Source of the DNA: a virus | Lineage: Duplodnaviria > Heunggongvirae > Uroviricota > Caudoviricetes | DNA: 64,000 nt | Strand: one strand, 5' to 3' | Virus record (IMG/VR): IMGVR_UViG_2609460125_000009 | Shown: one piece after another, positions 3,660 to 54,418 of the stretch | How positions within the stretch are numbered: the first letter of the stretch is position 1 | Layout: each line of letters begins with the position of its first letter | Position numbers and translations under genes: made by a program | The notes under the pieces: generated by a model | Database searches by the model: none | Seen by the model: the letters and a program-made list of their open reading frames with translations, nothing else | What the model was told of the DNA's origin: nothing

Positions 3660-3740
3660 AAAATAAGCGTGGAGAACACCTCCACGCTTGATTCATTGGT
3701 GAAACAACTTTTCTTTTGCCAAACCACAAAAGAAAAACAC

Positions 3741-4922
3741 ATGAGCCTTTATGTTATATCAACATTTAGGTTGGTCACAATATTGCCTGTTAAAAGTGGA
3801 ATTATCGTGAGCGAGCTGAAAGAGCTAATTACCGAATTAGATTTTGAACAATGGTTGGATACTGAAGGTATCGTTTATCGACGTGGAGGCGTGAGTACTC
3901 GCGGTCGTGAAGTGAATATCAAGGAGTGTCCGGTATGTGGCAGCTCCAACTGGAAGGTATATTTCAATCTGACCAGTGGCGTCGGTAAATGCTTCGCTGG
4001 TGATCATCCCGAAGAGATTCAGTTCAATAAGCTGGTCTTCCTCAAGCACTACAGCGGCAAATCACGACGACAGTTCGAGGAATATGTGCAGAACGCCCTT
4101 CTTTCCCAGGGGTGGGCACCAAAGAAAGAAGAGATAGTGCTTGCAAGCACAGTCGAGTTAGAGGGACCACTTGCACTCCCTCGTCATTACGAACTTCCTA
4201 TAGATGGCCGTCTTCCAGACTATCTGGTTGAACGAAACATATCGCCTGAAATGGCAAAGTATTTTGACCTACGATACTGCGTCGAAGGCAAGCACGCTTA
4301 TGTAGATCCGTATACAGATCAGGTTAAAGGACAGATATTCGATATGCGAATACTGATACCGGTTTACGATCTGGATGGGGTAATGAAGACATTTCAGGGG
4401 CGAGACATTACCGGTACAGCTGAACGTCGCTACCTCTTTCCTATGCAGCTTCCAGCTTCAGGTAAGTTTCTCTACAACGGCCATAATGCGGTCGGCAAAC
4501 AGACTGTAGTTGTCTGTGAGGGGGCGTTCGATGTTATGGGAGTTAAACGAGCTATTTTTGATGAAGAAACATTACGTGATTACGTGGAACCGATAGGAAC
4601 GTTCGGGATGCATCTATCTGGTAACACCACTCAGGATGCAGAAGATCAGTTGGGCGCGTTCCTGACGCTCAAGGCGCGTGGATTACGTAATGTGATCATG
4701 ATGTGGGATAGTGAAAAGCAAGCTATACGCAACACTATGGCCGCAGCCAGGCGACTGACCAGTATTGGTCTTAATGTCAAAGTAGCATGTTTGGGCGAGG
4801 AAGGACTCGACCCAGGCGATGCAACGCCAGAACAAATTATCAAAGCCTATTATCGGGCAAAACCGTATACCAAACAGTTGGAGTTGCAAAGCAAGGTTTT
4901 GGGCATTAAGGCGCTATCGTAA
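3741..4922 (+). CDS. DNA primase (zinc-finger + TOPRIM)
   Basis: CPVCGSS..C zinc ribbon, TOPRIM-like VVVCEGAFDVMG; start placed at the ATG with the conserved AAAAACACATG context (ORF in track begins at 3669). Confidence 0.8.
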   Translation: MSLYVISTFRLVTILPVKSGIIVSELKELITELDFEQWLDTEGIVYRRGGVSTRGREVNIKECPVCGSSNWKVYFNLTSGVGKCFAGDHPEEIQFNKLVFLKHYSGKSRRQFEEYVQNALLSQGWAPKKEEIVLASTVELEGPLALPRHYELPIDGRLPDYLVERNISPEMAKYFDLRYCVEGKHAYVDPYTDQVKGQIFDMRILIPVYDLDGVMKTFQGRDITGTAERRYLFPMQLPASGKFLYNGHNAVGKQTVVVCEGAFDVMGVKRAIFDEETLRDYVEPIGTFGMHLSGNTTQDAEDQLGAFLTLKARGLRNVIMMWDSEKQAIRNTMAAARRLTSIGLNVKVACLGEEGLDPGDATPEQIIKAYYRAKPYTKQLELQSKVLGIKALS

Positions 4923-5835: not shown

Positions 5836-6318
5836 ATGGCGGTAGTTGTGAAAGCTGATTTGTCAAAAATCCCTTCTATTTCAGGAAATAACGGTTATTC
5901 ACTTCGTTGTGAGGAAGTAAAGATAAACGGTGAGTCGGCATATTGCAGCTATTCCGTTTGCCAGCACACCATTCTTGCCTTCAAAGAAAACCGTCTTCCT
6001 CGAACTTCTTTCCAGTCGTGCGCAACCGCTATTAAAGCAGGCAAATGCAAGGCGTTAAAAATGATGGTTGAAGAGATTCGTAAAGGAGAATCTCTGTATT
6101 TCGAAGATATGACCGCGCTCATTAAGGAGGTTGAAGAACGGAATAAACAAGCCAGAACTATAAAACGAAAACGTGACAGTGTAACGATTAATAGCATGGT
6201 TAAGAAGAGCACCACATCACAAACAGCGATCACTGACGTGTATGCGGCGTTGCTTGAAGAAACAACAAAAGAAACACATGAGCAAATCGATCAACATATG
6301 GAGGCAAAACAACAATGA
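5836..6318 (+). CDS. hypothetical protein
   Basis: 160-aa ORF, stop overlaps ligase start. Confidence 0.5.
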   Translation: MAVVVKADLSKIPSISGNNGYSLRCEEVKINGESAYCSYSVCQHTILAFKENRLPRTSFQSCATAIKAGKCKALKMMVEEIRKGESLYFEDMTALIKEVEERNKQARTIKRKRDSVTINSMVKKSTTSQTAITDVYAALLEETTKETHEQIDQHMEAKQQ

Positions 6319-7637
6319 AAAAGTTGATCGCACTTAAGCATAAGCTGGACGAAATGAAAGCTATGGGAACCAATGCAAAAAAAGAGGCATTGGCCAACAT
6401 GGATGACTTCGAGCAAAGCATGGTTTCATTGATGCTCAACCCTTTCATCCGTTTTGGGGTAAAGAAATACAAAGTGGCAGAGCCGCTTAGTGAGTCCGTC
6501 CCAAGTGACGAAAAAGCCATTGATATACTGAATAAGCTGGCCTCTCGCGAGCTGACGGGGAACGCAGCAATAGCAGCTGTTGAGTCTATCGTGGCGTCAA
6601 TGTGCGCCGATGGGCAGGACGTGTTCCGTCGTTTCCTCTTAAAAGACCCGAAAGCAGGTGTTGGGATTAGCCTATGCAACAAGGTTTTTGAAAATCCCAT
6701 TCCGAAATTCGAGGTGCAGCTGGCGTCACCGTATAAAGAAAAAGGCGACAAATACCCCTTCAAGCCAAATCCTAAAGCCAAATGGCCGATGATTGGCAGC
6801 CTTAAGCTCGATGGTTTGCGAGTAATTTGCGAGGTTATTGTTGACGAGGAAGAGGTTAACTTCCTTTCTCGTACTGGTAATCCAATCACGTCTCTCGATC
6901 ACCTAAAGCCAGCCATGCTCGAATTAGGCAAACTTTCAGGCCACAAACACATCTTCTTCGATGGTGAAGGAACAGCCGGTTCATTTAACCAGTCCGTATC
7001 TGCATTGCGCAAAAAGAACGTGCAGGCAATTGGCGCTATTTATCATGTTTTCGACTTCTTCCTACCGGAATGGCGGGCACAGGCTAAATCCAAAGAGTAT
7101 GCAAAGACAGGTATGAAGCTGAAAGAGCGCCTGGCTATTCTCGTGGCGTTGTTCAAAAACGATCGCAGTGAAGACTACGCGCAAGACATTCACCTACATC
7201 CGTTCTACATCATCCATAGCCACGAAGACTTCATCGAACGCTTCATGAAACGCCTGGACGATAACGAAGAAGGGGAGATGGGCAAAGATCCGAACTCTGT
7301 TTACGAGTTTAAACGTACCCGCAGCTGGTGGAAGTTAAAAGACGAAGATTCAGAAGATGGTGAAATTATCGACTTTGAGCCGGGCGACCCGGACTCTGGT
7401 TTTGCCAACACACTTGGAAAAATTGTTATTCGTCTTGAAAACGGCGTCATCGTTCGTGCGAGCGGCATTAAGCATAAATATCTGGACGAGATCTGGAACA
7501 ACAAAGAGAAGTACCGTGGTCGTATTGTCGAGGTTCATTGTCACGAGAAAACACCGGACGGCAGCTTACGCCACCCACGACTGAAATGGCCGCGTTGCTT
7601 ACGCGATACAGAAGATCGAATCGGAGATAAAGAATGA
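6315..7637 (+). CDS. ATP-dependent DNA ligase
   Basis: KxDG adenylation motif (SLKLDGLR), size and context in the replication module. Confidence 0.8.
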   Translation: MKKLIALKHKLDEMKAMGTNAKKEALANMDDFEQSMVSLMLNPFIRFGVKKYKVAEPLSESVPSDEKAIDILNKLASRELTGNAAIAAVESIVASMCADGQDVFRRFLLKDPKAGVGISLCNKVFENPIPKFEVQLASPYKEKGDKYPFKPNPKAKWPMIGSLKLDGLRVICEVIVDEEEVNFLSRTGNPITSLDHLKPAMLELGKLSGHKHIFFDGEGTAGSFNQSVSALRKKNVQAIGAIYHVFDFFLPEWRAQAKSKEYAKTGMKLKERLAILVALFKNDRSEDYAQDIHLHPFYIIHSHEDFIERFMKRLDDNEEGEMGKDPNSVYEFKRTRSWWKLKDEDSEDGEIIDFEPGDPDSGFANTLGKIVIRLENGVIVRASGIKHKYLDEIWNNKEKYRGRIVEVHCHEKTPDGSLRHPRLKWPRCLRDTEDRIGDKE

Positions 7638-7813
7638 TGCTCGGCTGGATGATTGCATTTTTAGCGGTTGGTTTTTTAATCGGTATTGTGGTGATGTCCA
7701 GTTGCATCAATGACTACATTAAAAGCGGTGTTATAGAACGACGCGGTCGTATTTATCGCATTGTAGAAATAACCCGCACAGTGAAGGAGATTAAGGATGA
7801 TCGTATTAAGTAA
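7634..7813 (+). CDS. small membrane protein (59 aa), paralog of the 8009-8161 ORF
   Basis: ATG overlaps ligase stop; one TM helix then GRIYRIVEITRTVKEIKD, resembling GKRVYRVVHETKVRK in the 8009 ORF. Confidence 0.4.
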   Translation: MMLGWMIAFLAVGFLIGIVVMSSCINDYIKSGVIERRGRIYRIVEITRTVKEIKDDRIK

Positions 7814-8012
7814 GCGGGAGAAGGAAACGCTTCATGAAATCAGTAAGTGGCCGGAGTTCCCTGAGTACTGGAAGCCTAAAACGCGGGCTAAGTTAGAGCG
7901 GTTAGGGTTGGTTGCAAACGTTTCTGAAACGTGGTGTTCGGCCAACTACCAGTTAACTGATAAAGGGAAAGTATTGCTACAGCAATTAGTAGAATCAGGA
8001 GCGTTAAAATGA
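7797..8012 (+). CDS. hypothetical protein (71 aa)
   Basis: ORF in track, translationally coupled to neighbours. Confidence 0.4.
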   Translation: MIVLSKREKETLHEISKWPEFPEYWKPKTRAKLERLGLVANVSETWCSANYQLTDKGKVLLQQLVESGALK

Positions 8013-8161
8013 TTCCATACATCTCATTAGCTTTTATGGGTGGCTTCCTTATCGGCTTCGGCATCTGTCGTGATTTAATTAAGCAGGAACTTAAAACCAA
8101 AACACTGTGCATCGGAAAGCGTGTGTATCGGGTAGTTCATGAAACAAAGGTTAGAAAATGA
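8009..8161 (+). CDS. small membrane protein (50 aa), begins MIPYI on the recurring 13-mer AATGATTCCATAC
   Basis: ATG 8009 overlaps previous stop; TM helix; C-terminal similarity to the 7634 ORF. Confidence 0.4.
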   Translation: MIPYISLAFMGGFLIGFGICRDLIKQELKTKTLCIGKRVYRVVHETKVRK

Positions 8162-8448
8162 GCAATTTAACTTCTTGGGACTGGTGGTTGGCCACCTATT
8201 TCTTAGCGGCCGGAGTCGCATTCGCCTTTTACGTAGGTCAGTTAGTCGTAAAACTGCTGCTGATTAAATTTGCCAGTCATAAACGTATCGATGATGGTCT
8301 GTGGCGTCTTGGCACCCTGGTGGAAACTCGCTACGGGCAACTTAAGGAGAACGAAACCATTACTATCCAAGCGAAACGATTCACTGCCACCATCACAAGA
8401 ACACCTAGTCGTAGAGTGGCCTTGATCAAAAAAGTCACAACCGAATAA
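8158..8448 (+). CDS. membrane protein (96 aa)
   Basis: N-terminal TM helix (WWLATYFLAAGVAFAFYVGQLVV). Confidence 0.5.
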   Translation: MSNLTSWDWWLATYFLAAGVAFAFYVGQLVVKLLLIKFASHKRIDDGLWRLGTLVETRYGQLKENETITIQAKRFTATITRTPSRRVALIKKVTTE

Positions 8449-9224
8449 AAACATGGTGATAAGTATTTACTTACTTATCTTTTATGTATAAGATGACTTT
8501 GTTTTCGTTGAGACGCGACTGTTTGAACTTAAATACAAGTGCAAACGAAGAAGTCTATCTGGCAGTAGCCTAATAAGCCAAACACCAGCGAGGTCAGTTT
8601 CCAGCCTCGTTACCGAAATGGGACACACTGAGCGAGTGTGATTGCAGAACGCAGGAGGGAACATTCATGTTCCCTCCGATGAAGTAACAGAATGGGCGGT
8701 TGGTATATTTTCAACTCCATATGACTCCCGGATTCTTAGCCACTGACCGCCCATCCTGTTACGTCATTTTGTTCAATTATGTCGTTTATACTGGGTTAAA
8801 AAGCGGCGACGTAGCCCGGCTGGTATGGTTAGCCAGCACACAACGTTGAGGCCATTACATTTTTATCAATTCTAAGGTTCTATTCACAGAGATACCGGCG
8901 AGCGTTGATATGTAACATGTTGGGCAAACATTCAATCGGAGTAGTGGCCTCAACGTTGTGAAGACAGGATTGTTGTGTAGGTTTAACCACTGTTGCCATT
9001 GGTGCCTGTTTTCACAACAAATGATTCCATACATCACATTGTATAAATTACAAAGTAGGTGCTGTCCTCAGAAACATCATCTACTTAAAGATTTTGCCTT
9101 CTATTGAGCGAAGTCGAAAACGTCTGGCACTAACGGAAAGTGCAAGTAGCGGTGTGTTTCCTGGCAGAAACTAACACCGCCGCGATTGGCACTGTTGAGT
9201 AATAAATACTGGCAGTGCTGAATT

Positions 9225-9299
9225 GATGGTGTAGCTCAGCGGTAGAGCAGTTGGCTGTTAACCAACTGGTCGGTGGTTCGAATCCACCCACCATCGCCA
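9225..9299 (+). tRNA. tRNA-Asn (anticodon GTT)
   Basis: Manually folded cloverleaf: acceptor gatggtg/caccatc, D-arm gctc-agcggta-gagc, anticodon loop ctGTTaa, T-arm ggtgg-ttcgaat-ccacc, discriminator G + CCA. Confidence 0.85.
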
Positions 9300-9304
9300 A
9301 TTTA

Positions 9305-9391
9305 GGGGAGTTAGTCCGTAGAGGTAGCGGGGTAGACTGTAAATCTACTGTCATTGCGACTCGGGTGGTTCGACTCCATCACTCCCCACCA
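9305..9391 (+). tRNA. tRNA-Tyr (anticodon GTA), type II with long variable arm
   Basis: acceptor ggggagt/actcccc, anticodon arm gtaga-ctGTAaa-tctac, T-arm ggtgg-ttcgact-ccatc, discriminator A + CCA; D-arm pairing less clean. Confidence 0.75.
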
Positions 9392-9395
9392 AATT

Positions 9396-9471
9396 GCCGG
9401 TTTAGCTCAGTTGGTAGAGCGCCTGCCTTGTAAGCAGGATGTCAGCGGTTCGATCCCGTTAACCGGCACCA
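9396..9471 (+). tRNA. tRNA-Thr (anticodon TGT)
   Basis: acceptor gccggtt/aaccggc, D-arm gctc-agttggta-gagc, anticodon arm cctgc-ctTGTaa-gcagg, T-arm agcgg-ttcgatc-ccgtt, A + CCA. Confidence 0.85.
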
Positions 9472-9835
9472 ACACAACAGGTAAGAGCATTGGGCGAATC
9501 GGCGATACTGACCCACAAGCCCGTAAATCGATAGAGTCAGACCAGTGCTCTTACCGTTGTGAGGAAGTGCAGCTCTTTGAAGCAACCAGAAGATAAGCAT
9601 CTGGCTTCACAACACAACGATAAGATCATTACGGTTAATCGTCGTTCATGTGCACAATGACTGGTCGAAAGGTAGTGATCTTACCGTTGTGGTGGATTCG
9701 CAGACTGATGCGATAGCTTTCTTGGATGTTAGGGAAATGCGGCCGCAAATCTTCCCTTTCGCGAGCGGTGATCGTCCGTAGTCCTAATTGGCTGCACCGT
9801 ATGCCGGAGATTCAGTACCGGCCACCACAACGGCC

Positions 9836-9922
9836 GGAGAGTAGGGAGCATGGTGCTCAAGCGGTCTTGAAAACCGTCCCATTGCGCAAGCGATGATGGT
9901 TCGATTCCATTACTCTCCGCCA
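9836..9922 (+). tRNA. tRNA-like gene, probably tRNA-Ser (anticodon TGA), non-canonical D-arm
   Basis: acceptor ggagagt/actctcc, anticodon arm gcggt-ctTGAaa-accgt, long variable arm, T-arm gatgg-ttcgatt-ccatt, G + CCA; D-arm does not fold cleanly. Confidence 0.45.
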
Positions 9923-10077
9923 GACACAGCGTTGAGCGGTTTGGCCTTTTAATCACCCAGATTAAGACTCCGCTAACATAAACCAGACCGCTCAACGCTG
10001 TGATAGACAATTACGGCAGACGTTCTTAACCATAGCTTGCTAACATCCTAGCAACACTTTTTTTCAGCGCAAAATTC

Positions 10078-10100
10078 AAAGGGGCTTCGGCCCCTTTTTT
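10078..10100 (+). terminator. rho-independent terminator after the tRNA cluster
   Basis: aaaggggc-ttcg-gcccc followed by tttttt. Confidence 0.7.
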
Positions 10101-10143
10101 GCAACTGAAAGAGTCAAGTCTACGAACTTTGTAGGAAGAAATA

Positions 10144-10494
10144 ATGACCAGCAAAGATAACACACCACTAAAAGTCACCCCTGAACACATTGAACAACTC
10201 ATTCAAAGTGAACATTATTTCACTGCATATGATGCCAGCCACGGGGATAACTTCATCTCCGTTTACAATTCAAAAACAGATATCGACAAATGTCATGAGT
10301 CGTTAAAACTCTTAACGTTCTGCGTTATGGTTCTCAAAAATGGATATACCGTAACGGGAAAATCTGCGTGCGTAAGACCAGAAATCTTCAACTTTGATGT
10401 TGGTCGCGAGTACGCTCGAAAAGATGCTATCGATCAAATCTGGCCCCTGGAAGGCTATCTCCTGAAGCAAAAGTGGCATGAGGCAAAGCAATGA
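10144..10494 (+). CDS. hypothetical protein
   Basis: 116-aa ORF with AGGA RBS. Confidence 0.55.
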   Translation: MTSKDNTPLKVTPEHIEQLIQSEHYFTAYDASHGDNFISVYNSKTDIDKCHESLKLLTFCVMVLKNGYTVTGKSACVRPEIFNFDVGREYARKDAIDQIWPLEGYLLKQKWHEAKQ

Positions 10495-10736
10495 CGATCA
10501 CTATCTACGGACGAGATAACTGCTCATTCTGCAAACGTGCGGTCGAGCTGGCGAAGCAACTAAAGGGACATGGCTACGGTGATTATGAGTACATCGACAT
10601 CACCACTGCCGGTATCGACAAGGAAAAACTAAGTGAAATTGTTGGTAAACCGGTAGAGACTATCCCCCAAGTGCTGATCGATGGCCAACCGATTGGCGGA
10701 TACACAGAACTGGCTGCATACGTCAGCACCCTCTGA
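10491..10736 (+). CDS. glutaredoxin/NrdH-like redoxin
   Basis: 81 aa, N-terminal CSFC (CxxC) active site and thioredoxin-fold spacing (TIPQVLIDGQPIGGY). Confidence 0.7.
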   Translation: MTITIYGRDNCSFCKRAVELAKQLKGHGYGDYEYIDITTAGIDKEKLSEIVGKPVETIPQVLIDGQPIGGYTELAAYVSTL

Positions 10737-10815
10737 TTTTAACGGCTCACAGGAGCCGTTTTTATTCCCACCAAACTCACTCCCGTTTCCCTTAAAATTC
10801 AAAAAACAACGTCAA

Positions 10816-10848
10816 AATGATTCCATACCTACTATGTATGGAATCATT
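10816..10848. repeat. loxP-like site: perfect 13-bp inverted repeats AATGATTCCATAC flanking a 7-bp asymmetric spacer CTACTAT
   Basis: Read directly; lies ~100 bp upstream of the tyrosine recombinase gene; additional copies of the 13-mer at 8008-8020, 9020-9032 and (reverse) 16867-16879. Confidence 0.5.
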
Positions 10849-10902
10849 AGTAAAAATGAGTTACTTTTACTCTTGATCCTATAAGAATCTATGCCTAATA
10901 TA

Positions 10903-10918
10903 CTGTTTACTTATACAG
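10903..10918. promoter_or_regulatory. LexA-box-like palindrome CTGT-N8-ACAG upstream of the recombinase gene
   Basis: taCTGTttacttatACAGta, 29 bp upstream of ATG 10947. Confidence 0.4.
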
Positions 10919-10946
10919 TACATCGGCGTAACTCGGTGATTGTCAT

Positions 10947-12050
10947 ATGAAAAATAGCTTTGACAGAGCACGCGCTGCGGAGAACACCTCAAAAGAGGCG
11001 ATTGAGTATCTCGAAAGAGCATCTCAAATGCAGGCCGTTATGATCTCCCAGGTCAGCAATGACATGAGATTCTCGGACGCATTCATGTTATTCACTCGCT
11101 TATCTCTGCTGATAACAAGACGTCGGCCAGAGATCGCTGTTCATTGTATTTTGATACATGTTTTGCCGCACATTGCCGATGTAAAAGTAAGTGATATTAA
11201 TAGGTTCATGGTGAACCAACTGGTCAACCCACTAATACTGGATGGCAAAATTGTTATGGGTCGCCGCGTTTTCTCTCTGATGAAGCAGTTCCTCAGCTGG
11301 TGCGCCTTCCAGGGGATGATCGACGTGTCACCGTTAAACGATATGTCACTTAACAAAGTTGCCGGTGGCGCAAAGCCCACACCTCGCGAGCGGAAGCTGA
11401 CCGACGCAGAGGTATGGGTGTTCTGGAATATATGGGACTACTTCAATGTGTGTGCTGGTACAAAATGGGCGGCCAGGCTATGTCTTGTATCCGCAAGACG
11501 ACCTGACGAAGTACTGCGGGCTAAAAAAAGTGAGTTCAATCTTAAGCGTGGGGTTTGGAATCAAGGCAAGAGGAACAAATCTGCCCGTGAGCATTCTCTG
11601 CCTTTAAGCTCATTAATGCGCACTTGTATTGAAGAGTTGTTCGAATATGGTAAAGACAGCCAGTGGCTCGTGCCTTCGAATAAAAAAATCGGGAAAGACC
11701 TTCCTATGTCTAAAGTGGCAATAGCCCAGGCATTACGTCGTATTCTGGAACGACCAGAACTGATGGAGCTTGAGCCATTTACACCCCGAGATTTGCGCCG
11801 TACTGCGCGTAGTTACTTCCCAGCATTAGGCATAAGCCAGGAGGTATCACGTAAAATCATGAACCACAGTCTTGAGGGGATAGATCGGGTCTACGACCGG
11901 CACGATTATATGGACGAGATGCGAGACGCCTTAGAAAGTTTCTCGACGTACATCGCATCAATCGTAGAGCAACCGGATTTAGACGAAATTGACCACAAAT
12001 TTAAGGGAGATCGTCTATCAACAGAGCTTATTCGTGTAAATTTTTCATAG
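10947..12050 (+). CDS. tyrosine site-specific recombinase/integrase
   Basis: C-terminal catalytic domain with R ... HSL ... R ... Y pattern (RDLRRTARSY, NHSLEG, VYDRHDY); no clear RBS so start is uncertain. Confidence 0.75.
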   Translation: MKNSFDRARAAENTSKEAIEYLERASQMQAVMISQVSNDMRFSDAFMLFTRLSLLITRRRPEIAVHCILIHVLPHIADVKVSDINRFMVNQLVNPLILDGKIVMGRRVFSLMKQFLSWCAFQGMIDVSPLNDMSLNKVAGGAKPTPRERKLTDAEVWVFWNIWDYFNVCAGTKWAARLCLVSARRPDEVLRAKKSEFNLKRGVWNQGKRNKSAREHSLPLSSLMRTCIEELFEYGKDSQWLVPSNKKIGKDLPMSKVAIAQALRRILERPELMELEPFTPRDLRRTARSYFPALGISQEVSRKIMNHSLEGIDRVYDRHDYMDEMRDALESFSTYIASIVEQPDLDEIDHKFKGDRLSTELIRVNFS

Positions 12051-12431
12051 AGACTTTATGGCCTCAACAACCTTTTGTGATGCGCCTTTCTCTTTACCGA
12101 ATCGCTCGTTATATGCAGCAAGAACCTGTTTTTCGTCCTCGTTAAGAGGAGCAGTGCCTTCTTTGTATAAAAATGCTGCGAGTTCGGGTTGGCGTTCTTC
12201 CAGCACCATCATCATAAGACGACTTGGCTCAATACCCAGTGCCAGCGCCAGCGGACGAACCTTATCGATAGGCAAAGGAATTTTGCCGCTTTTAATTAAA
12301 GAAAGGTTGTTGGCGTTTTTATACCCAATTGTTTTGGCTATCTGGGCCTGGCTCATAGGTGAGGATTCAATCAACCCTGCGATAAAAGCAGCGTAGCGAC
12401 TTTCTATAAATTCAATCTTGTTATCAGACAT
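12045..12431 (-). CDS. XRE-family helix-turn-helix transcriptional regulator
   Basis: HTH SQAQIAKTIGYKNANNLSLIKSGK; convergent with the recombinase gene. Confidence 0.65.
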   Translation of the reverse strand: MSDNKIEFIESRYAAFIAGLIESSPMSQAQIAKTIGYKNANNLSLIKSGKIPLPIDKVRPLALALGIEPSRLMMMVLEERQPELAAFLYKEGTAPLNEDEKQVLAAYNERFGKEKGASQKVVEAIKSL

Positions 12432-12682
12432 GGTTACAACCTTTGCGCGTTCAATTCTCTCTGGTAAGTGCTTACCGATATTACATCAAAGGTTAGGGTT
12501 GTAAAGCTATTATCATTTTTTTCGATAGGCACTTAAAAGACCGGTTAAAGGCCATTGCACGGAGAAAAATTAGCCCAAAATAGGTAAGAAAATCAACTTG
12601 CATATGATATGAATGTATTCAGTATTGATACAAATTTTAGTAGTATTCCTTACCATAGTATAAGTTAGAATGGATTGATTGA

Positions 12683-12895
12683 ATGAACACCACTATTTCC
12701 AGCCTAATCGCTCTTGAGATCGGACACGTACAGAAATTAGCTGATGAGTGTGTAGCTGACATCCTCACCGATCTACCGAATGAGCAGATTCAGGTTGGTG
12801 TGAATGACACAACTGGATTTATATTCGAACTTAACAACAAACGCTTCACGCTTCTCAATACCGGCTCCGGGTCTTTAGCCGTCAGAATCTGTTAA
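12683..12895 (+). CDS. hypothetical protein (70 aa)
   Basis: ORF in track only; weak support. Confidence 0.3.
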   Translation: MNTTISSLIALEIGHVQKLADECVADILTDLPNEQIQVGVNDTTGFIFELNNKRFTLLNTGSGSLAVRIC

Positions 12896-12993
12896 CCCCT
12901 CTTCTCCCTGCGCGAATGGCTTAGTTCCCTGTTCGCGCAGTGCTACATTAAACACACTAGTAAATAATTTGTTTTCATAACAAAGGATTAGCC

Positions 12994-15102
12994 ATGTCTA
13001 AAAAACGTTCCATCAAAGAGGTTCAGGACTTCCGTGACAGTGTAAAACGAGTAGTCGCTCTCCTTTCAGGTAAAAACATCCCTGTTGCAGAACGAGGGGA
13101 CGACGCTTATGTACGCTATAACGATGATGGAGAGCCAATTCTCGTAAACATCCCATCAATCCCGGATAACGCAACACCGGCATTGATGAATGCTGTGCGC
13201 GGATTTCTCGATCATGAGGTTGCTCACATTTTGTTTACCGATATTCGTGTGTCCAACAAAATGAGAGAAAAAGGACGCGTTCCTTCCTGGTCGCTATGGA
13301 ATGCCTTAGAAGACGTGTTCATCGAGCGAAAAATGGGTCAGGTCTTTAACGGAACAAGACGTAATCTGATGGCAACTCAGCGCCTTATAATCGAAAAAGT
13401 CTTTAAACCAAAGGCTTCAGAGGCTATTGCTTATTGTGGCAAAGATCAGCGCGCGCTTTTTCTAAACTTCTTTCTCTGTCCGGTTGTAAGAGCCTGGGAT
13501 GGCCAAGCACCGTTCGTAGATTTCATGGATGAATATTGGCCTGTCATTGAGAAACCAATTTCATTATTAAAAGAACATGGTATCGATGTGGCCGTGCGTA
13601 ACATGTCTTGCACCGAGGATTGTGTAAAGGTGGCTGCGACCATAGCTAAGATCCTCAAAGACACTGAAAGTGAAAGCAAAGGTAAGGAGTCAGCTCCGGG
13701 AAAAACTTCCGATCCTTCAGACGCTGACCAGACGGATGCCTCTGGAGAAAACAATGAAGACAACGAAGATCATGAGACACCCTCAGCGTTAGATAATCAC
13801 AAATCTATCAAATCAGAATCACACAGTAAGCACAAACATGATAATAACGACGGTGATGATTCAGATAATTCTGAATCATCAGAAACAATATTCGATGATA
13901 CAGAAAATGATAAAGAGGTATCAGATTCTGATGCTTCTGATAACGCGGTGTCAGAATCATTTACCGCTGACCACGAAAAAAGAAAAACGACAGAAGACGG
14001 CTCTTCAGATATCCCAACTCCGTCAAAAATGAGTCTGGAAGAGGCTTTAGAGGAGCTGGATAGCATAGAAGATGAAGTCGGAGGCATGACAGAAGATGCT
14101 CTATCCGAAACGATTAAAAGCGAGTTAACAGAAACCTCGAAAAGCGAATACAGGCCATACAATCGCTCATACGACTTCATCGGCTCGATTGATCAGGCAG
14201 AAGCCCATATCAAACGGCTTATTAAAACATTCTCCGATATTGATTTAGGAGGATATCCAATCAGCCGCTATCGCATCGTTCCTGAAGGCAACCAGCTCTT
14301 CGACAAATATATTGAAAAGCATCTTTCGTCAGGTGTTTCGTCGACGCTGGCAAAAGACCTGGAGCGAGCAATAGCAAGCAGAAACAGAGTTCAGTTTATA
14401 CCGGGCCAGCGTCGGGGGCGCATTCATGGTTCTAGTATCTACAGATTAGCAATGAATGATGATCGCGTGTTTCGTAAAAAAGAAGAATCTAAAGCCGTTA
14501 ACGCCTGTGTTCAGCAAGTGATTGATTTATCAGGTTCAATGAGTGGTATAACGATACAATTGGCTCTTGCAAGTGCATATACCATCGCCGATGCCCTTGA
14601 TCGAATAAATGTTCCCAACATTATCACCGGCTTCACTACATTTGGTAGTCATATGGCGGCAGGAGAACTTAAGGCTGTCAAGTATGAGTTCTCTCGCTTT
14701 GAATCTTTAATGCTACCTATCATCAAAAATTGGAATGAAAAGGTAAATTCTCGCGAAGTTCGCTCACGTATGGGGTGCGTAGGCTACACATTCCCACTTC
14801 TTAATAACGTGGATGGTGAAAGCATAGCCAGCCTTGCATCGTTATTTTCCGGTCGCATGGAGGACAGGAAGATCATGCTTGTTCTGAGTGATGGCGCGCC
14901 GTGGGCTGTTGGGAGAGGTTTTGACGCTCATTTGCGTTCGGTTGCGAAGCAAATTGAAACGCAGACTGACATTGATTTGATGGCAATTGGCATCATGACT
15001 GACGCACCGGAGAGATTATACTCAAATCATGCCCTGGTAACGAGCGTTGATAGTCTTGGTTCATCTGTAGTTACTGAACTATCTCGTATCATTTTAAAGT
15101 GA
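12994..15102 (+). CDS. VWA-domain protein, CobT-like
   Basis: C-terminal MIDAS-like DLSGSMSG, long acidic/Ser-rich central linker; paired with the downstream AAA+ ATPase. Confidence 0.65.
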   Translation: MSKKRSIKEVQDFRDSVKRVVALLSGKNIPVAERGDDAYVRYNDDGEPILVNIPSIPDNATPALMNAVRGFLDHEVAHILFTDIRVSNKMREKGRVPSWSLWNALEDVFIERKMGQVFNGTRRNLMATQRLIIEKVFKPKASEAIAYCGKDQRALFLNFFLCPVVRAWDGQAPFVDFMDEYWPVIEKPISLLKEHGIDVAVRNMSCTEDCVKVAATIAKILKDTESESKGKESAPGKTSDPSDADQTDASGENNEDNEDHETPSALDNHKSIKSESHSKHKHDNNDGDDSDNSESSETIFDDTENDKEVSDSDASDNAVSESFTADHEKRKTTEDGSSDIPTPSKMSLEEALEELDSIEDEVGGMTEDALSETIKSELTETSKSEYRPYNRSYDFIGSIDQAEAHIKRLIKTFSDIDLGGYPISRYRIVPEGNQLFDKYIEKHLSSGVSSTLAKDLERAIASRNRVQFIPGQRRGRIHGSSIYRLAMNDDRVFRKKEESKAVNACVQQVIDLSGSMSGITIQLALASAYTIADALDRINVPNIITGFTTFGSHMAAGELKAVKYEFSRFESLMLPIIKNWNEKVNSREVRSRMGCVGYTFPLLNNVDGESIASLASLFSGRMEDRKIMLVLSDGAPWAVGRGFDAHLRSVAKQIETQTDIDLMAIGIMTDAPERLYSNHALVTSVDSLGSSVVTELSRIILK

Positions 15103-15197
15103 ACAAAACAGCCTTAACGATAAGTAACCACTTACGATAGATAATGATATATTTATATAAGAAGTTGAACGCTCATTAGAAAACAAAGGAAAAACGC

Positions 15198-16433
15198 ATG
15201 ACTACTACTGCACTGCAAAATGAAAACAATCCTTCTGATTACCTTGTTTGCAAGTGGTGCGGAAAATCATTTCACTATTTTAAGTCCCATGTTGCCAATG
15301 GTAATTGCGAGGGCATTCCTGAGTCAGTAAAAGATGCCGATCCTGACACCGTACTGAAAATGTACACAACACAGTTTCCAGATGAGCCAACGCTATCGAA
15401 AAAGGCACTTGATGCAATTCAAGCTAAACGTGCCGAGCAAAAAAGCGAAATGGCCAAATCATCTGGCGTGACCAGTAGCCCAGGCTACACAGGCACAGTT
15501 GAGTACAAGACAGATCTGGTCGCAGCTCACGAACTGCTAAATGTAACGGTGAAAGAACTCGGAACAAAACGTGGGACGCCGCTCATGGTTAGCGTCAACG
15601 TCAATACGCCGTTTCCAGAGTTCGTTCCAGAAGTGAAGAAGGGATACGTATATGGCGACTTCGAACTGATCAAAGACATTTTCATGATGCTTGAACTTGG
15701 CATACCTGGCTATTTGTGGGGTCATGCAGGAACAGGCAAATCGTCATTGCCTACACAACTATGTGCTTTGCTCAATCGTCCGTTGATCCGTGCCCAACAT
15801 ACAGCATCAATGGAAGAGGCACATGTTACGGGGCAAATTCTGGCGCGTGATGGCTCTACGTATTTCGAGCCTGGCTTGCTTGCGCTCGCAATGAAGCATG
15901 GCTGGGTTTACCTCGCGGATGAATACGACTTTGCGTTTCCACAAATTCTTGGCGTGTATCAGCCAGTGCTGGAAGGTGAAGCGTTAGTCATCAAAGAGGC
16001 GACTCCAGAATGGCGTCGCATTACTCCGCATGAACGGTTTGCTTTCATTGGCACTGGCAACACGAACGGATCTGGTGATGAAACCGGCTTGTACCAGGGT
16101 ACAAACATCCAGAACGCCGCGAACTTTTCGCGTTTTGGCATCGTTTCGAATGTGAAATACATGAGCAAAGAGGCAGAGATCAACATGTTGATAAATGCCG
16201 GTATCGTGGATGAATACGCAGAAAAGATGGTTAAGTTTGCCGGTATCGTTCGCGATGGATACGAAGAACACCTTATCAGTCAGCCAATTGGCCCTCGTGA
16301 ACTTTTGTTGTCGGCCAAGATTGGAATGATGCGAGGCGACTTTGTGACAGGTATTGAGCGTTCTTTCATTAACAAACTCCCTTCAGCTTCTGCACAAGCG
16401 GCTCGTGAAGTTGTTCAAAAAATATTTGGTTGA
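15198..16433 (+). CDS. AAA+ ATPase, CobS/MoxR-like
   Basis: Walker A GHAGTGKSSL, Walker B VYLADEYD, sensor region; conserved AAAGGAAAAACGCATG start context. Confidence 0.7.
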   Translation: MTTTALQNENNPSDYLVCKWCGKSFHYFKSHVANGNCEGIPESVKDADPDTVLKMYTTQFPDEPTLSKKALDAIQAKRAEQKSEMAKSSGVTSSPGYTGTVEYKTDLVAAHELLNVTVKELGTKRGTPLMVSVNVNTPFPEFVPEVKKGYVYGDFELIKDIFMMLELGIPGYLWGHAGTGKSSLPTQLCALLNRPLIRAQHTASMEEAHVTGQILARDGSTYFEPGLLALAMKHGWVYLADEYDFAFPQILGVYQPVLEGEALVIKEATPEWRRITPHERFAFIGTGNTNGSGDETGLYQGTNIQNAANFSRFGIVSNVKYMSKEAEINMLINAGIVDEYAEKMVKFAGIVRDGYEEHLISQPIGPRELLLSAKIGMMRGDFVTGIERSFINKLPSASAQAAREVVQKIFG

Positions 16434-16613
16434 TCGTGCGTAAAGGATGTTTCGGCTCTCTTATCGCTGCTTCTGAAACTGGTAAGGCTTGTCTGGTGTG
16501 TCCAGACAAGCCCGATTGTCACCAATCAGCAAAAGAAGTTGCGATTTCGATGCATGGGAAGTTCGTAGGCTTCCCAAATGACAAAATCAAAAAAACCAGA
16601 AAGGTAAAAACAC

Positions 16614-19600
16614 ATGAAGGCACTGATGGTTCGAACTGACTTCTCACTTGGGGAGTCGGCTTTAAAAGCAGAAAACGCGGTGAAGATTGCCAGAGAAGCT
16701 GGCTACACCGCTGTAATTTCAGCAGATAGCATGAATATTGCGAGCGTTATTCCACTACAACGTGCCGCTGGTGACGACATGGCGGTTATTTGTGGTGTGA
16801 AACTAAACATCGTTGATGATCCCACATACGAGCACCGGGCTAAACTTGCTAAAGAGTCTAAGGGATGTATGGAATCATTGGAGCGAGGACGTAACTACTC
16901 GTTTACCGCTCTAATTAAAAATGAGAAAGGATATCGCGACATCTGCGAACTAATGACGGCGGCCAACACACGAGAACAGTTCTACTTTGTACCGCGTCTC
17001 TCGCTCGAACAGTTGGTTTCTACATATGCCAAAGGCAACATCATCCTGCTTACTTCCGACATCGGTAGCGTGTTCCAACGCAACGATTTTGCAAAAATCA
17101 TAAGCACACTGATTACAGCGGGTGGAAAAGACAACTTCTATAGTGTGGTTTATCCGCACCCTACCCCATTCTACGACCAGATTAACGTCCGGGCGATGAA
17201 AGTCGCCAGCGCATTGAAAATAGAGCCAGTGGCGTTCTATCCCGCTTATTACGAATCGATCGACGATGCAGACATTAAAGACATTGCGCACATGGTTACG
17301 AACAACATAAAAATCGACCAGCCGCATCGTCTGCGTATCCCCCACCAGCGAGATAACGCCATCAATGGTCGTCGCCATCTCCTTGAGGCGCTTAAAGCCT
17401 TCTCCGTTCGCATGGATGTGCCGGTAACAGCTGCAATGGCCTCAACAACGCAGGACTCCATTATCGATGCCTGCACATGGCGCTGGCATGAATTGCCACC
17501 AGCACTGCCCAAGATGGCAGACGACGAACCTGCAACGCTGATGAAACTGGCTGTTGCAGGGCTGCGTAAACGTCTTACCACAAAAGAGTTTGGATACACA
17601 CCACCTGCTTCTGAGAACAGGGTTTATGTTGAGCGGCTAAAGTACGAAATGGACACGCTGACTCGCCTGGGATTCTGTGGTTACTTCCTGATGGTACGCG
17701 ATCTGATGAATCACAGCCGTGAAACTGGCATTCCTGTCGGGCCTGGTCGTGGTTCCTCTGCCGGTTCTCTGGTGGCGTGGTGCATAGGCATAACCAACGT
17801 CGACCCAATCCGTCACGGTCTTCTGTTTGAGCGTTTCATCAACCCTGAGCGTCTCGACTTGCCGGATGCTGACTTGGACTTCAGCCAGGCACGTCGCCAT
17901 GAGGTGATCGAGTATCTGAATGAACGCTACGGCGAAGATTACGTTGCAGGCATTCCGAACTTCACCTATCTGGGCGCGGCATCTGCGCTGCGTGACACTG
18001 CACGTATTTACGGTGTCGATGCTGCGGATATGGCGGTATCCAAAGAGTTCAAGAATATGGAGGACGACAGCCTGTCTCTGGAAGAGCTGCGCGAGCAACT
18101 GGCCAGCCTGGACAAATACGCCACGAAAAACCCGGAAGCGTTCAAAGCGGCGTGTAAGCTGCAAAGCCTGATGCGTGGTTTTGGTCGTCACGCTGCGGGG
18201 ATGATCGTCGCTGGCGTTCCATTAGTAGAGCGCACGCCCGTCGAGCTGCGTGGCAATGCTCGATGTATTGCGTTCGATAAACGTTACTGCGAGGCGATGG
18301 GGCTGATTAAGTTGGACGTTCTCGGTCTGGCAACACTCGATCTTCTGGATAGCGCGAAACGCTACATCAAAGAGAGTACCGGTGAAGACATCAATCTCGA
18401 CGCTATCCCACTGGACGATCGCAAGGTTCTGGATGGGTTCGCTGCAGGGTACACGCAGGGCGTATTCCAGCTGGAGTCCGGCCCCATGCGTAAGCTGCTT
18501 AAAGATCTGGGCGGTGGCATCGAGCCAATGAGTTTCAAAACCGTTGTCGCAACTACCGCCCTCTTCCGACCGGGACCGATTCAATCCGGCATGTTGGATG
18601 ACTATGTTTCCGTTGCGAAAGGATTTATGACGCCTACATCACTACATCCTGTCTTGGATGAACTGACCTCTGAAACAAATGGAGTGATTCTCTATCAGGA
18701 ACAAACGATGAACGCAACAAGGCTTCTTGCTGGTTTCACAATGGCCGAGGCGGATGGTGTGCGTTCAGCAATCGGTAAGAAGAACATGGAAAAGATGAGG
18801 AGCATGGGTGAGAAATTTGTCATTCAGGCTCAAGCTGGGTGGATCGACGTAGAGCTTGAAAATGGCGCAATACAACGGATTCATCGCGCAGAACATTTTA
18901 AATGCGAGGACGGTACTCTGAGGACAGTTGAAGAGGCGTTGGAGCATGGAGTGAAGCTGCCAATGCCAGTTGTGCGCGTTACAACGTCACATCCAGGTCT
19001 GTCTGAGACGAAGGCAAAAGAGATATGGACTGCATTTGAGAAAAACGGAGCCTATCAGTTCAATAAATCACACTCCGTTGCTTATTCTTTAATCAGTTAT
19101 CAGTCTATGTGGCTAAAGACGCACTACCCTGCTGAGTTCTTCGCAGCTGCGCTCACCATTCTGGGCGAGGATAAGCATCAGGGGCTGGTGAAGGATGCGC
19201 TGACCTATGGCATTCGCGTATTGCCACCAGACGTTAATGTGTCATCTAACCGAATTGAGATCCGCACACTCGAAGACGGCAGTCAGGCACTGTATGCGCC
19301 ATTCTCTGCTGTGAAAGGCTGTTCTGAAAATGGTTGTCAGGCAATTATGCGTGCGCGTGAGAAAGTTGGTGGCAAATTCGAGTCAGTGGCACAATTCGAT
19401 GAAGCGGTCGAGAAGCGTGCATGTAACAGTCGTGTACGCGAGTCGCTTCATAAAGTAGGGGCTTTTGCGTCAATTGAGCCAGGCAGTCTGCCAGCAACTG
19501 ATCCTGAACGACTGCGCGACCAGGCTGAGCTGATGGGCAATCTCATCATTGACGCTGTTAAAGCATCACGTCCGTTCGAAATGAATCCTAAGCGTTCTGC

Positions 19601-27304: not shown

Positions 27305-27367
27305 TCTCTTGAAAATATATAAGTGCTTACTTATCATTTTTCACATAACAACCACATAGGAAAACAC

Positions 27368-27568
27368 ATGATCAAAATCTATCTATTGGCAGTAGCCACA
27401 GGCCTTTCAGTGGCTCTCATCTACGGATTACTGGTTCCGTCGCTGATTTCTGCAAAGAGTGATTTGGCCGTCATGCTTGGAGTTCTCGTTGGTTTTGGCG
27501 CTCCAGTAATCGGTCTTATTGGTGGTCGTAAGTTTATTAACTCATTAATCAAAGCAAAGGGGAAATAA
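27368..27568 (+). CDS. small two-TM membrane protein (66 aa)
   Basis: Start at the ATG with GGAAAACACATG context; hydrophobic throughout; directly upstream of the SPFH gene. Confidence 0.5.
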   Translation: MIKIYLLAVATGLSVALIYGLLVPSLISAKSDLAVMLGVLVGFGAPVIGLIGGRKFINSLIKAKGK

Positions 27569-28919: not shown

Positions 28920-28974
28920 TCGCCTATTCATAACTACCAAAATAAGTAAACACTAACCACAAAAGGAAAAACAC

Positions 28975-29250
28975 ATGAGAGTTTTAGTTCGAATCGTTAC
29001 CAGCACTGTCTATGACGCATTTCCGCTTTTTATCGTCAAAGCCGATGGCCTTAACGACGAAGAAACTGACGCGCTGATCCAGCGTACTCTTGTTGAATAT
29101 ACAGGTCATGACGCTGATTCAGTGATGGTTGATGATGATGGTGTTTGTTGGCATAACGGCAACTGTTGGTACGTAGAAGAGACTCAACAAATCAGTGATG
29201 AAGATGCCGCACATCTTGAGCGTATTTTAAGCATCAGCACTTTTGAGTGA
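28975..29250 (+). CDS. hypothetical acidic protein (91 aa)
   Basis: Conserved GGAAAAACACATG context; Asp/Glu-rich. Confidence 0.5.
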   Translation: MRVLVRIVTSTVYDAFPLFIVKADGLNDEETDALIQRTLVEYTGHDADSVMVDDDGVCWHNGNCWYVEETQQISDEDAAHLERILSISTFE

Positions 29251-32945: not shown

Positions 32946-33199
32946 CCCTCCAGATCGTATATTGGCGTAGATAGAATCTACGCCCCCTCAAAATAGCTCT
33001 CATAGCGTTCTACAGTGATCCAGTCTTATTTTTAGTCATACAGACAAGCAAAGTTGCGCCACGATAAATAGGTATATACTTACTTATAAATTTTGTATAT
33101 TAAGGCGCTCGTTTCATTCCTAACATACCGTTATGCATAGTTGTTTACCTCCTCATTGCTCTTAGAATTTGTATCAAAATAACCACAAAGGAAAAACAC

Positions 33200-40132: not shown

Positions 40133-40232
40133 CATATGGTGGGGTATATCCCCACCTTATCTTTGATTTGTAAGCCTTGTTTAAACACATAAGATAACAA
40201 CTTGTTTAAACACATCAAAAAAGGAAAAACAC

Positions 40233-51824: not shown

Positions 51825-51963
51825 TGACAAGGGCCAAATGGCCCTTGTGTTTCGTTGACCGAAATAGAGAGTTTGCACCTTTACGTTTAGCTTGCTCCCC
51901 TTTTATGCCACATCACAATAAAGCCAATAAGAAAACAACTTGTTTAAGCATTAGGAAAAACAC

Positions 51964-54357: not shown

Positions 54358-54418
54358 TAGGTAAATACTTACCTAATTTGTGTAAGAATGTAGTTACTAA
54401 ACGATAAGAGAAAAACAC

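Follow-up and report, generated by a model that had tools for sequence, protein, structure and literature searches.

The replication module of an Escherichia coli phage-plasmid raises the question of whether a 13-mer, AATGATTCCATAC, which opens several short open reading frames (ORFs) starting with the residues MIPY, marks a family of small peptides or rather a site in the DNA that contains an ATG by chance. The sequence in question is IMG/VR virus record IMGVR_UViG_2609460125_000009, analysed as a stretch of 64,000 nucleotides (nt) that is referred to below as the window, and it represents an SSU5/pHCM2-like phage-plasmid of E. coli. A preliminary description had put forward both alternatives. 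Its exact copies at 8008, 9020 and 10816 on the + strand are indeed present and begin the ORF 8009-8161 as well as two micro-ORFs at 9021 (28 amino acids, aa) and 10817 (19 aa), the sequences of which read as given there; two more exact copies, on the - strand at 10836 and 16867, had been overlooked. These five copies compare with 0.01 expected (none of 100 shuffled sequences reached five), there are no copies with one or two mismatches in the window, and a complete 94.8-kb relative carries the same five copies and no others. The occurrence on both strands and the palindrome that two copies form beside a recombinase gene strongly support the first alternative, as do the covariation of the site with that gene over ~60 species and its conservation in non-coding DNA amid diverging flanks. 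On this comparative evidence, the 13-mer is most likely a DNA site rather than a coding element.

The copies at 10816 (+) and 10836 (-) together form a perfect 13-7-13 inverted repeat, the end of which lies 98 base pairs (bp) before the ATG of the gene annotated as integrase. The two features concerned are the following.

10816-10848, no strand assigned: putative core (crossover) site of the adjacent tyrosine recombinase, the 33-bp palindrome AATGATTCCATAC-CTACTAT-GTATGGAATCATT (from comparison with homologous loci)

10947-12050, + strand: tyrosine recombinase ('integrase', 367 aa) without arm-binding N-domain (from Pfam, catalytic residues and an AlphaFold2, AF2, model)

The same architecture recurs in divergent plasmids, at ~50-100 bp upstream of the gene: the site reads TGTGATTCCATAC-TCTATAG-GTATGGAATCACA in a Klebsiella phage-plasmid (integrase 59% identical) and TGTGACTCCAGAC-TTAACAG-GTCTGGAGTCACA in Pantoea stewartii pDSJ10 (52%), while P. 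alfalfae (48%) has the same arm type as pDSJ10. In a scan of GTDB with one genome per species, 61 loci were found to encode a relative of the recombinase (~45-86% identity), and in 60 of these, two inverted 10-bp core arms (counted with at most one mismatch each) lie exactly 7 bp apart upstream of the gene, at a distance of 57-256 bp (median 112). Half of the sites (30 of the 60) are perfect 13-7-13 repeats, and the single exception among the loci holds only a fragment of the gene. The genera include Pantoea, Rahnella, Erwinia, Ewingella, Xenorhabdus, Photorhabdus, Morganella, Hafnia, Yersinia and Kluyvera. Only two arm types occur, GATTCCATAC in SSU5-like elements and GACTCCAGAC elsewhere, with both arms always changing together; GATTCCATAC arms go with proteins at least 56% identical to the window recombinase and GACTCCAGAC arms with the 44-53% group, i.e. 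the specificity of the site co-evolves with the protein.

The 7-bp spacer, on the other hand, varies, the commonest forms being TTAATAG, at 29 loci, and CTATTAA, its exact reverse complement, at 13. Preservation in either orientation makes sense only for double-stranded DNA, and because both orientations occur relative to the recombinase gene, the polarity of the site is not tied to that of the gene. In ~55 of the loci (Pantoea, Rahnella, Erwinia, Ewingella) no other gene is shared with the window, the repressor next to the integrase included, which means that the palindrome travels with the recombinase gene alone. Several of the Pantoea-type loci are annotated non-phage plasmids, and homologues are found on large plasmids among housekeeping and metabolic genes. 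In 5,426 complete E. coli genomes the region upstream of int occurs in 215 copies, distributed over 214 genomes, and all 215 are on plasmids and none on a chromosome, which argues for a function in plasmid maintenance (multimer resolution) and against chromosomal integration.

By its fold and catalytic residues, the product of 10947-12050 is a tyrosine site-specific recombinase. It matches Pfam PF00589 (E=2.9e-10, 40.6 bits versus a cut-off of 27.1), with a weak match to PF22022 in the central domain. Across 49 homologues there is no variation at R185 (in the motif RPDE), R284 or Y316 and at least 90% conservation at K211 and H307, H307 and Y316 being 9 residues apart, while the first His position of the catalytic motif is occupied by an Arg (R281, assigned by eye from the alignment). 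The AF2 model (predicted local distance difference test score, pLDDT, 86.4; residues 1-57 predicted helical) best matches the core-binding and catalytic domains of lambda Int on its COC' core site, followed by Tn1549 Int, XerA/XerH and IntI, with Cre ranking much lower. Strand exchange by lambda Int takes place across a 7-bp overlap. The invariant 7-bp spacer fits this overlap. Pfam returned no match to PF13356 or to any other arm-binding N-domain; the recombinase clade is compact (at least 44% identity) and separated by a gap from the P4-type integrases (at most 34%), and this nearest outgroup does have PF13356, whereas the clade does not. A PDB sequence search with the single sequence gave zero matches and one with a 5-sequence profile only a marginal match to XerH (E=0.04), while the NCBIfam match, PRK09692, was far below its cut-off.

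The remaining copies are solitary half-sites (lone arms) at some distance from the palindrome. In the window they are the following.

8008-8023, + strand: solitary half-site, AATGATTCCATAC followed by ATC, sharing bases with the stop of ORF 7797-8012 and with the first five codons (MIPYI) of ORF 8009-8161

9020-9035, + strand: solitary half-site outside coding sequence, ~200 bp before the tRNA cluster, a conserved island in 34 unique contexts

16864-16879, - strand: solitary half-site inside dnaE (codons CMESL), ~250 bp from its start, at the orthologous place in relatives

Lone arms are found in SSU5-like phage-plasmids only; at the ~55 other recombinase loci there is none within 10 kb on either side of the gene. 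They occupy four orthologous positions, namely the start of the 50-aa gene (8009-8161), the non-coding DNA near the tRNAs, the inside of int (codons D-V-W-N-Q; absent in E. coli) and the inside of dnaE (codons C-M-E-S-L). The following comparisons cover a dozen loci from four or five lineages, in alignments anchored on the motif itself. In every lineage examined the lone arms match the palindrome arms over at least 11 nt, and in the lineage of the 59% Klebsiella integrase the non-coding lone arm and both palindrome arms carry the same variant, TGTGATTCCATAC. Each exact-match lone arm is followed by ATC, whereas palindrome arms are followed by CTA, TTA, ATA, TTG or TCT; in two Klebsiella elements the arm of the copy within int has one mismatch, and ATT takes the place of ATC after it. 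The non-coding lone arm, ATGATTCCATACATC, is 97-100% conserved in the 34 unique contexts compared with 41-79% in its flanks, which also contain indels; as its GATTCCATAC core was the search anchor, the independent signal lies in the flanking ATG and ATC. The dnaE arm has the same place in the SSU5, Kluyvera, Y. pestis and Nissabacter elements despite differing neighbour codons, and its 16 nt are identical between SSU5 and E. coli while adjacent codons differ. Left of the palindrome the lone arms are all + strand copies and right of it all - strand copies (29 arms in 12 loci), so that the ATAC-ATC end of each points towards it.

Two other views of the lone arms were discarded. They do not appear to be halves of degenerate full sites, since a second arm sought 7 or 8 nt further on agrees at no more than 6 of 13 positions, nor module boundaries, as the deletion in SSU5, which takes out the DNA between tRNA-Asn and cobT, has no arms at its ends. 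As a side observation, the palindrome arms in distant SSU5-like elements of Xenorhabdus and Morganella are of the GACTCCAGAC type, and these elements have a conserved solitary motif of their own, TGACTCCCGATC, at 12970 (-) in locus L032, 13081 (-) in L053 and 13099 (-) and 2749 (+) in L056. Its places are within a variable portion of cobT and in the spacer between helicase and primase. Relative to the palindrome its strand is once more + on the left side and - on the right, and it may be the counterpart of the lone arms.

Taken together, the explanation that we consider probable is that the 13-mer is a recombinase half-site, the palindrome the core site of the adjacent recombinase with multimer resolution as its function, and the lone arms extra binding sites. 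The two inverted 13-bp arms with their 7-bp spacer (10816-10848) would be the core recombination site of the 10947-12050 product, of which one monomer would bind each arm. Two sites on a plasmid dimer would then synapse as a tetramer, and strand exchange across the asymmetric spacer would return dimers to monomers, which would amount to lox- or dif-like multimer resolution in the phage-plasmid as well as in many non-phage plasmids of Enterobacterales. The lone copies at 8008 (+), 9020 (+) and 16867 (-) would be bound by this recombinase as well and serve as accessory or regulatory elements, just as TnpI uses extra copies of its own binding motif in the IRS system as accessory sites (PMC2847244). 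The comparison shows the anatomy of the site, its conservation, its covariation with the recombinase gene, its restriction to plasmids and the fold of the recombinase, whereas binding, strand exchange, resolution and the role of the lone arms are what we infer from it; judged from its context, the site probably does serve multimer resolution. Predictions of this kind, in which the target of a Y-recombinase is taken to be a palindrome beside its gene, have had an experimental success of ~50% (PMC10250229).

Several observations weigh against this explanation, mostly where the lone arms are concerned. The covariation of the palindrome arms also keeps the potential to form a hairpin. The orientation rule of the lone arms amounts to four independent positions (P ~0.13), so that their shared orientation towards the palindrome is only suggestive. 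Their distance from the palindrome, 0.7-6.9 kb over the loci examined and 1.8-6.0 kb in the window itself, greatly exceeds that of known accessory sites. ATC is always present on lone arms and never on palindrome arms, a hint that recognition may require more than the arm itself. At three of the four positions the arm lies within coding DNA, so that constraint on the encoded protein adds to the conservation, and one lineage keeps the MIPY protein while its DNA site has decayed. Finally, SSU5 has no recombinase, repressor or palindrome and nevertheless keeps all three lone arms, which means that there the arms are either relics or serve another protein.

The case of SSU5 deserves closer description. 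Its three lone arms are at the orthologous places, one with an A-to-G change, and tblastn found no match to int or to the repressor in 101 kb of the 103-kb genome. This fits a recent loss of int, without proving that the arms depend on the recombinase. Its positions 11913-12149 correspond to 9225-12993 of the window, with tRNA-Asn leading directly to cobT, and Gp49, glutaredoxin, recombinase, palindrome, helix-turn-helix (HTH) repressor and a 70-aa ORF are missing. On this comparison the founding member, SSU5, is itself derived by deletion and lacks the putative module for immunity and resolution; no deletion of this type was seen in 80 IMG/VR loci.

The best guess remains that the lone arms are additional binding sites for the same recombinase, although their role could be that of an accessory element, a regulatory site, a barrier or a decoy. 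A more far-reaching version, to which we give only a modest chance, is that the ATC-extended half-sites are a functional long-range part of the system, with monomers at polar single arms on either side of the resolution site acting over kilobases. They would then either shape the synapse (as a topological filter, or as a barrier to forks or transcription that converges on the site) or allow the recombinase to regulate the genes of the replication module. If true, such a long-range design has not been described for any tyrosine recombinase.

Among the other explanations, the one that survives best, though it seems rather unlikely, is that a regulator of the phage-plasmid has its operators, spread across the replication module like the C1 operators of P1, in the lone arms and perhaps also in the palindrome. 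The regulator could be the HTH repressor (12045-12431, -) or the winged-helix-like protein encoded by 7797-8012. Such a function would agree with the restriction of lone arms to SSU5-like phage-plasmids, all of which have the repressor beside int, with the ATC extension, which suggests a recognition unlike that of the palindrome arms, and with the expression of the repressor in lysogens (PMC9928086); SSU5, lacking both int and repressor, does not discriminate between the two. However, the identical palindrome architecture is found at the ~55 loci that have the recombinase without a repressor homologue, the divergent promoter region of the repressor has a different repeat (GGTAAG/CTTACC), and the lone arms agree with the palindrome arms throughout their 11-nt core in every lineage examined.

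That the lone arms have no function at all, being near-matches caused by coding constraint (MIPYI, CMESL, DVWNQ) or relics of recombination, is very unlikely in our view. Their mostly coding location is in line with it, and so are the MIPY N-terminus kept in a lineage with a decayed site (TTG ATC CCA TAT), the absence of the int-internal copy from E. coli in spite of the retained VWNQ residues, and the lack of synonymous variation in some other codons of the 50-aa gene as well. Coding constraint does not, however, account for the non-coding copy as an island in flanks with indels, nor for the 16 identical nt in dnaE of SSU5 and E. coli among differing neighbour codons; exact 13- to 15-mers, three or four per element, are beyond protein constraint alone.

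Little probability is likewise left for the palindrome being an attP, by which the enzyme would integrate the element at a chromosomal attB and would not resolve multimers. The annotation as integrase, the P4/CP4-57-type integrases as nearest relatives and the fold closest to lambda Int all speak for it. It is contradicted by the absence of chromosomal copies among the 215 in E. coli, by the missing arm-binding domain, by the perfect symmetry of a palindrome without flanking arm-type repeats, and by the homologues that reside on large plasmids among housekeeping and metabolic genes.

It is more improbable still that the palindrome is an RNA or DNA hairpin (a terminator, processing site or structure in a 5'-untranslated region) and that the covariation reflects the upkeep of base pairs. 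Arm changes are compensatory, and the RNA does fold, a 13-bp stem closing a 7-nt loop (-16.7 kcal/mol, z=-4.95). Yet the palindrome does not qualify as an intrinsic terminator, i.e. a G+C-rich stem followed by a T-run (there is no T-run on the + strand, and a terminator scan was empty there, the terminator of grx being at 10741-10760). Moreover, the loop is kept as TTAATAG or its reverse complement and the spacer at exactly 7 bp in 60 loci, the arm sequence is the same in more than ten genera instead of drifting through many compensatory states, and the lone arms are conserved though unable to pair.

The weakest alternative, a family of MIPY micro-peptides translated from each copy of the 13-mer, can be given almost no credence, since the motif covaries with the recombinase gene and with no ORF. 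Its attraction is that each copy has an ATG followed by ATT CCA TAC, which is also why each copy opens a short ORF, and that one copy starts a real gene of 50 aa. Contrary to what the preliminary description had considered, however, the lengths of the ORFs vary, their sequences are unrelated and the start codon is not always ATG. At the non-coding lone arm the arm-initiated ORFs of the different lineages are 5, 6, 14, 20 and 28/29 aa long; further lengths include 11 and 19 aa, without any sequence relation (5-29 aa for lone arms overall). ORFs initiated in the palindrome range from 5 to 76 aa and share only 'M/VIPY..MES', which is the translation of the two arms themselves, so that the conserved sequence is that of the motif alone. 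Some arm copies have GTG, TTG or CTG where ATG is expected, and several minus-strand copies, those in dnaE and int among them, open antisense micro-ORFs of just 5-6 aa. Conservation of both length and sequence, as in a true small-ORF family, is found for the 50-aa gene alone. With that exception, the MIPY micro-ORFs are most likely by-products of an ATG inside a DNA site. The ORFs concerned, together with the two small membrane proteins of the same region, are listed here.

9021-9107, + strand: micro-ORF of 28 aa, opened by the ATG of the site; not a conserved peptide, as lengths vary between lineages

10817-10876, + strand: micro-ORF of 19 aa running across the palindrome; no conserved peptide, as lengths vary between lineages

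8009-8161, + strand: real gene for a 50-aa single-pass membrane protein (paralogue B, phrog_6302), conserved in 80 IMG/VR loci

7634-7813, + strand: real gene for a 59-aa single-pass membrane protein (58 aa if started from 7637; paralogue A, phrog_4381), from homology and PHROG match

Both of the latter ORFs, and the paralogy proposed for their products, were borne out: BLASTP aligns the two with 33% identity over 45 aa (E=8e-6), and orthologues of both from four elements (seven sequences, including SSU5 and two Klebsiella elements) have G, G, K, R, Y, R, V and T invariant. Each protein has one hydrophobic stretch of transmembrane strength (Kyte-Doolittle value in a 19-residue window 2.6 for 7634-7813 and 1.8 for 8009-8161) and a tail with net positive charge. 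Full-length matches to PHROG families of unknown function were obtained, with E=2e-38 for phrog_4381 (7634-7813) and 8e-37 for phrog_6302 (8009-8161). The family is narrow, a profile from the two window paralogues retrieving 20 cluster representatives among 1.84 billion proteins, and neither NCBIfam nor PADLOC gave a useful name for the small proteins. A third small membrane protein (8158-8448) was considered as a paralogue, but is not detectable as such (hhalign probability 0.7%).

The 50-aa gene is the one place where the site and a protein coincide. Its product is encoded at 70-100% identity in the 80 IMG/VR loci. Of 47 unique orthologous sequences, 45 begin with the same 15 nt, the synonymous positions of codons 2-5 being all fixed, whereas variation is seen in codon 6, in the bases upstream and at many other synonymous sites. 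The Klebsiella lineage with the 59% integrase keeps the protein start (M/L)IPY while its DNA, TTG ATC CCA TAT, no longer matches the arm, and in Nissabacter the site at the start of the gene is GTGATTCCATACATC, which shows that protein and DNA site are separable. From these comparisons, 8009-8161 is a real gene with a lone arm superimposed on its start in most lineages, and 7634-7813 is, on its homology, a genuine gene too.

As for the wider context, the region 6300-11000 is 99.7% identical to E. coli plasmids (e.g. NZ_CP117972 and NZ_CP081792), 98% to the phage-plasmid Cyrano and 79% to Salmonella phage SSU5. All copies of the 13-mer sit in the replication module of the element, where the genes run from helicase, primase and ligase (6315-7637) through four small genes that overlap one another, non-coding DNA in which four tRNAs are located (9225-9922), Gp49 and glutaredoxin. 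Next come the tyrosine 'integrase' (10947-12050), the divergent HTH repressor (12045-12431, -), CobT, an AAA ATPase and dnaE (from 16614). The junctions of the four small genes are start-to-stop overlaps of the ATGA type, which suggests translational coupling. A sigma-70 promoter scan of 7500-11100 gave no sites (5.5 expected), leaving the impression, gained by eye, that lone arms overlap promoters unsupported. Rfam (7500-17500, E<=1) returned the four tRNAs and otherwise only noise below threshold, none of it at a copy of the motif, and the GC skew has no inflection at the palindrome, i.e. there is no sign there of a replication origin or terminus.

Some further observations were made in the same region. 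ORF 7797-8012 (71 aa, phrog_4054), located between the two paralogues, has weak PADLOC matches to the C-terminal part of Csa3/CARF (E=0.0015), and the annotators of Cyrano labelled its counterpart a putative transcriptional regulator; its product may be a small winged-helix DNA-binding protein. The long non-coding stretches around the tRNAs (8450-9220 and 9470-10060) contain many stems closed by CACAAC(G/A)...(C/T)GTTGTG, which are partly kept in SSU5. Rfam matches at 8443-8624 are tmRNA-like and sub-threshold only, and the tRNA-Ser at 9836-9922 scores 46.6 against a cut-off of 47 for tRNA-Sec. In Cyrano an extra minus-strand gene, CYRAN_43 (12176-12899), lies between glutaredoxin and palindrome; it is reported as 723-fold above background in lysogens (PMC9928086). 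The control region between the HTH repressor (-) and the 70-aa ORF (12683-12895, +), at 12432-12682, has GGTAAG/CTTACC elements, one being the palindrome GGTAAGTGCTTACC at 12463-12476 and others lying near 12583 and 12649. These are likely the operators of the repressor and unrelated to the 13-mer.

Eight + strand genes, including dnaE (ATG at 16614) and the gene at 3741, have their start codon at the end of another over-represented motif, roughly AACCACAAAAGGAAAAACACATG. This motif resembles a common box of Shine-Dalgarno sequence, spacer and ATG, and is possibly a translational operator. The copies, all on the + strand, are at

3727-3743, AACCACAAAAGGAAAAACACATG-like motif
16600-16616, AACCACAAAAGGAAAAACACATG-like motif
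27354-27370, AACCACAAAAGGAAAAACACATG-like motif
28961-28977, AACCACAAAAGGAAAAACACATG-like motif
33186-33202, AACCACAAAAGGAAAAACACATG-like motif
40219-40235, AACCACAAAAGGAAAAACACATG-like motif
51950-51966, AACCACAAAAGGAAAAACACATG-like motif
54405-54421, AACCACAAAAGGAAAAACACATG-like motif

In full-text searches of the literature the arm sequences turned up in unrelated primers only, no paper describing the site or the pair was found, and recombinases of SSU5-like elements are mentioned generically only. The comparative evidence defines a recombinase/target pair with a 13-7-13 site and a protein that has a lambda-Int-like fold and no arm-binding domain. It is carried by 214 of the 5,426 complete E. 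coli genomes, by ~100-kb plasmids of Yersinia pestis, Salmonella, Klebsiella and Enterobacter, and by large plasmids of Pantoea, Rahnella, Erwinia and others. If active, the pair would be a stability determinant of clinically relevant phage-plasmids and a candidate orthogonal tool for genome engineering, one that published screens, as they required an 8-bp spacer, could not see. The lone half-sites, conserved and polar, call for an explanation and lend themselves to direct tests, and for the discovery of small ORFs the locus is a cautionary case, in which a DNA site containing an ATG can mimic a 'peptide family'.

How, then, does the pair compare with known systems? With two inverted arms of ~13 bp around an asymmetric spacer in the range of 6-8 bp, close to the gene of a protein with which it co-evolves, 10816-10848 has the make-up of a lox-like pair. 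It resembles Cre/loxP (of P1), Dre/rox, Vika/vox, Nigri/nox and Panto/pox in having the gene beside one palindromic target made of two 13-bp arms and a short asymmetric spacer, as well as in the plasmid or phage-plasmid location, the presumed multimer resolution and the lack of an arm-binding domain. The spacer is, however, 8 bp in those pairs versus 7 bp here, and lox has no counterpart of the lone arms. Cre is a distant match of the window recombinase (Foldseek E ~1e-2, rank 38th or lower, versus 3e-7 for lambda Int), so that neither closest similarity to Cre nor an 8-bp spacer places the pair in the Cre-type subfamily. Panto, which is 41% identical to Cre and has a pox site resembling rox, forms a different, Cre-like system. 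Published searches for new pairs considered only 8-bp spacers near Cre-type genes (PMC10250229).

Lambda Int is the best structural match over the core-binding and catalytic domains, with 7 bp as the overlap in both, and P4/CP4-57-type integrases are the nearest sequence relatives outside the recombinase clade. The lambda and P4 types differ by their N-terminal arm-binding domain, and lambda also by an imperfect C/C' core compared with the perfect palindrome here. As there is no arm-binding domain, no arm-type sites of different sequence were seen near the palindrome, and no chromosomal copies occur in the 5,426 E. coli genomes, the pair does not have the make-up of a lambda-type integrase with its attP.

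To our knowledge, TnpI/IRS is the only precedent for extra copies of a recombinase's own motif. The resolution site of TnpI measures ~116 bp, and in Tn5401 copies of the motif are also present in the transposon ends. TnpI/IRS of Tn4430 (and TnpI of Tn5401) is similar to the present system in its extra single copies of the core-arm motif as accessory elements, but differs in that these adjoin the core in one compact resolution site (PMC2847244). The lone arms of the window system, by comparison, are 0.7-6.9 kb away, on both sides, partly in genes and with a conserved ATC, i.e. the extra copies are shared with TnpI and the compact site is not.

XerCD/dif with KOPS, the polar sequences that orient FtsK, and the Tus/Ter fork trap around dif likewise have a resolution site flanked by asymmetric elements that switch orientation at the site. 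This resemblance is geometric only, as KOPS and Ter differ from the dif arms and are bound by other proteins, whereas the polar elements here are the arms themselves, with only 2-4 copies per element and no inflection of GC skew. The sfx shufflon sites of R64 are recombined by the tyrosine recombinase Rci and have a 7-bp spacer and only one conserved arm. Rci/sfx differs, however, in that its sites share the spacer and invert segments, whereas the 7 bp after the lone arms differ beyond ATC(C), and an Rci-like inversion between lone arms would break dnaE. Unlike an operator set of the P1 C1 kind, the palindrome is present at ~55 loci that have no repressor homologue. The best-supported reading is that of a simple-site tyrosine recombinase system with the 13-mer as its arm, for which Cre/loxP of P1 would be the nearest functional analogue and lambda Int minus its arm-binding domain the nearest structural relative.

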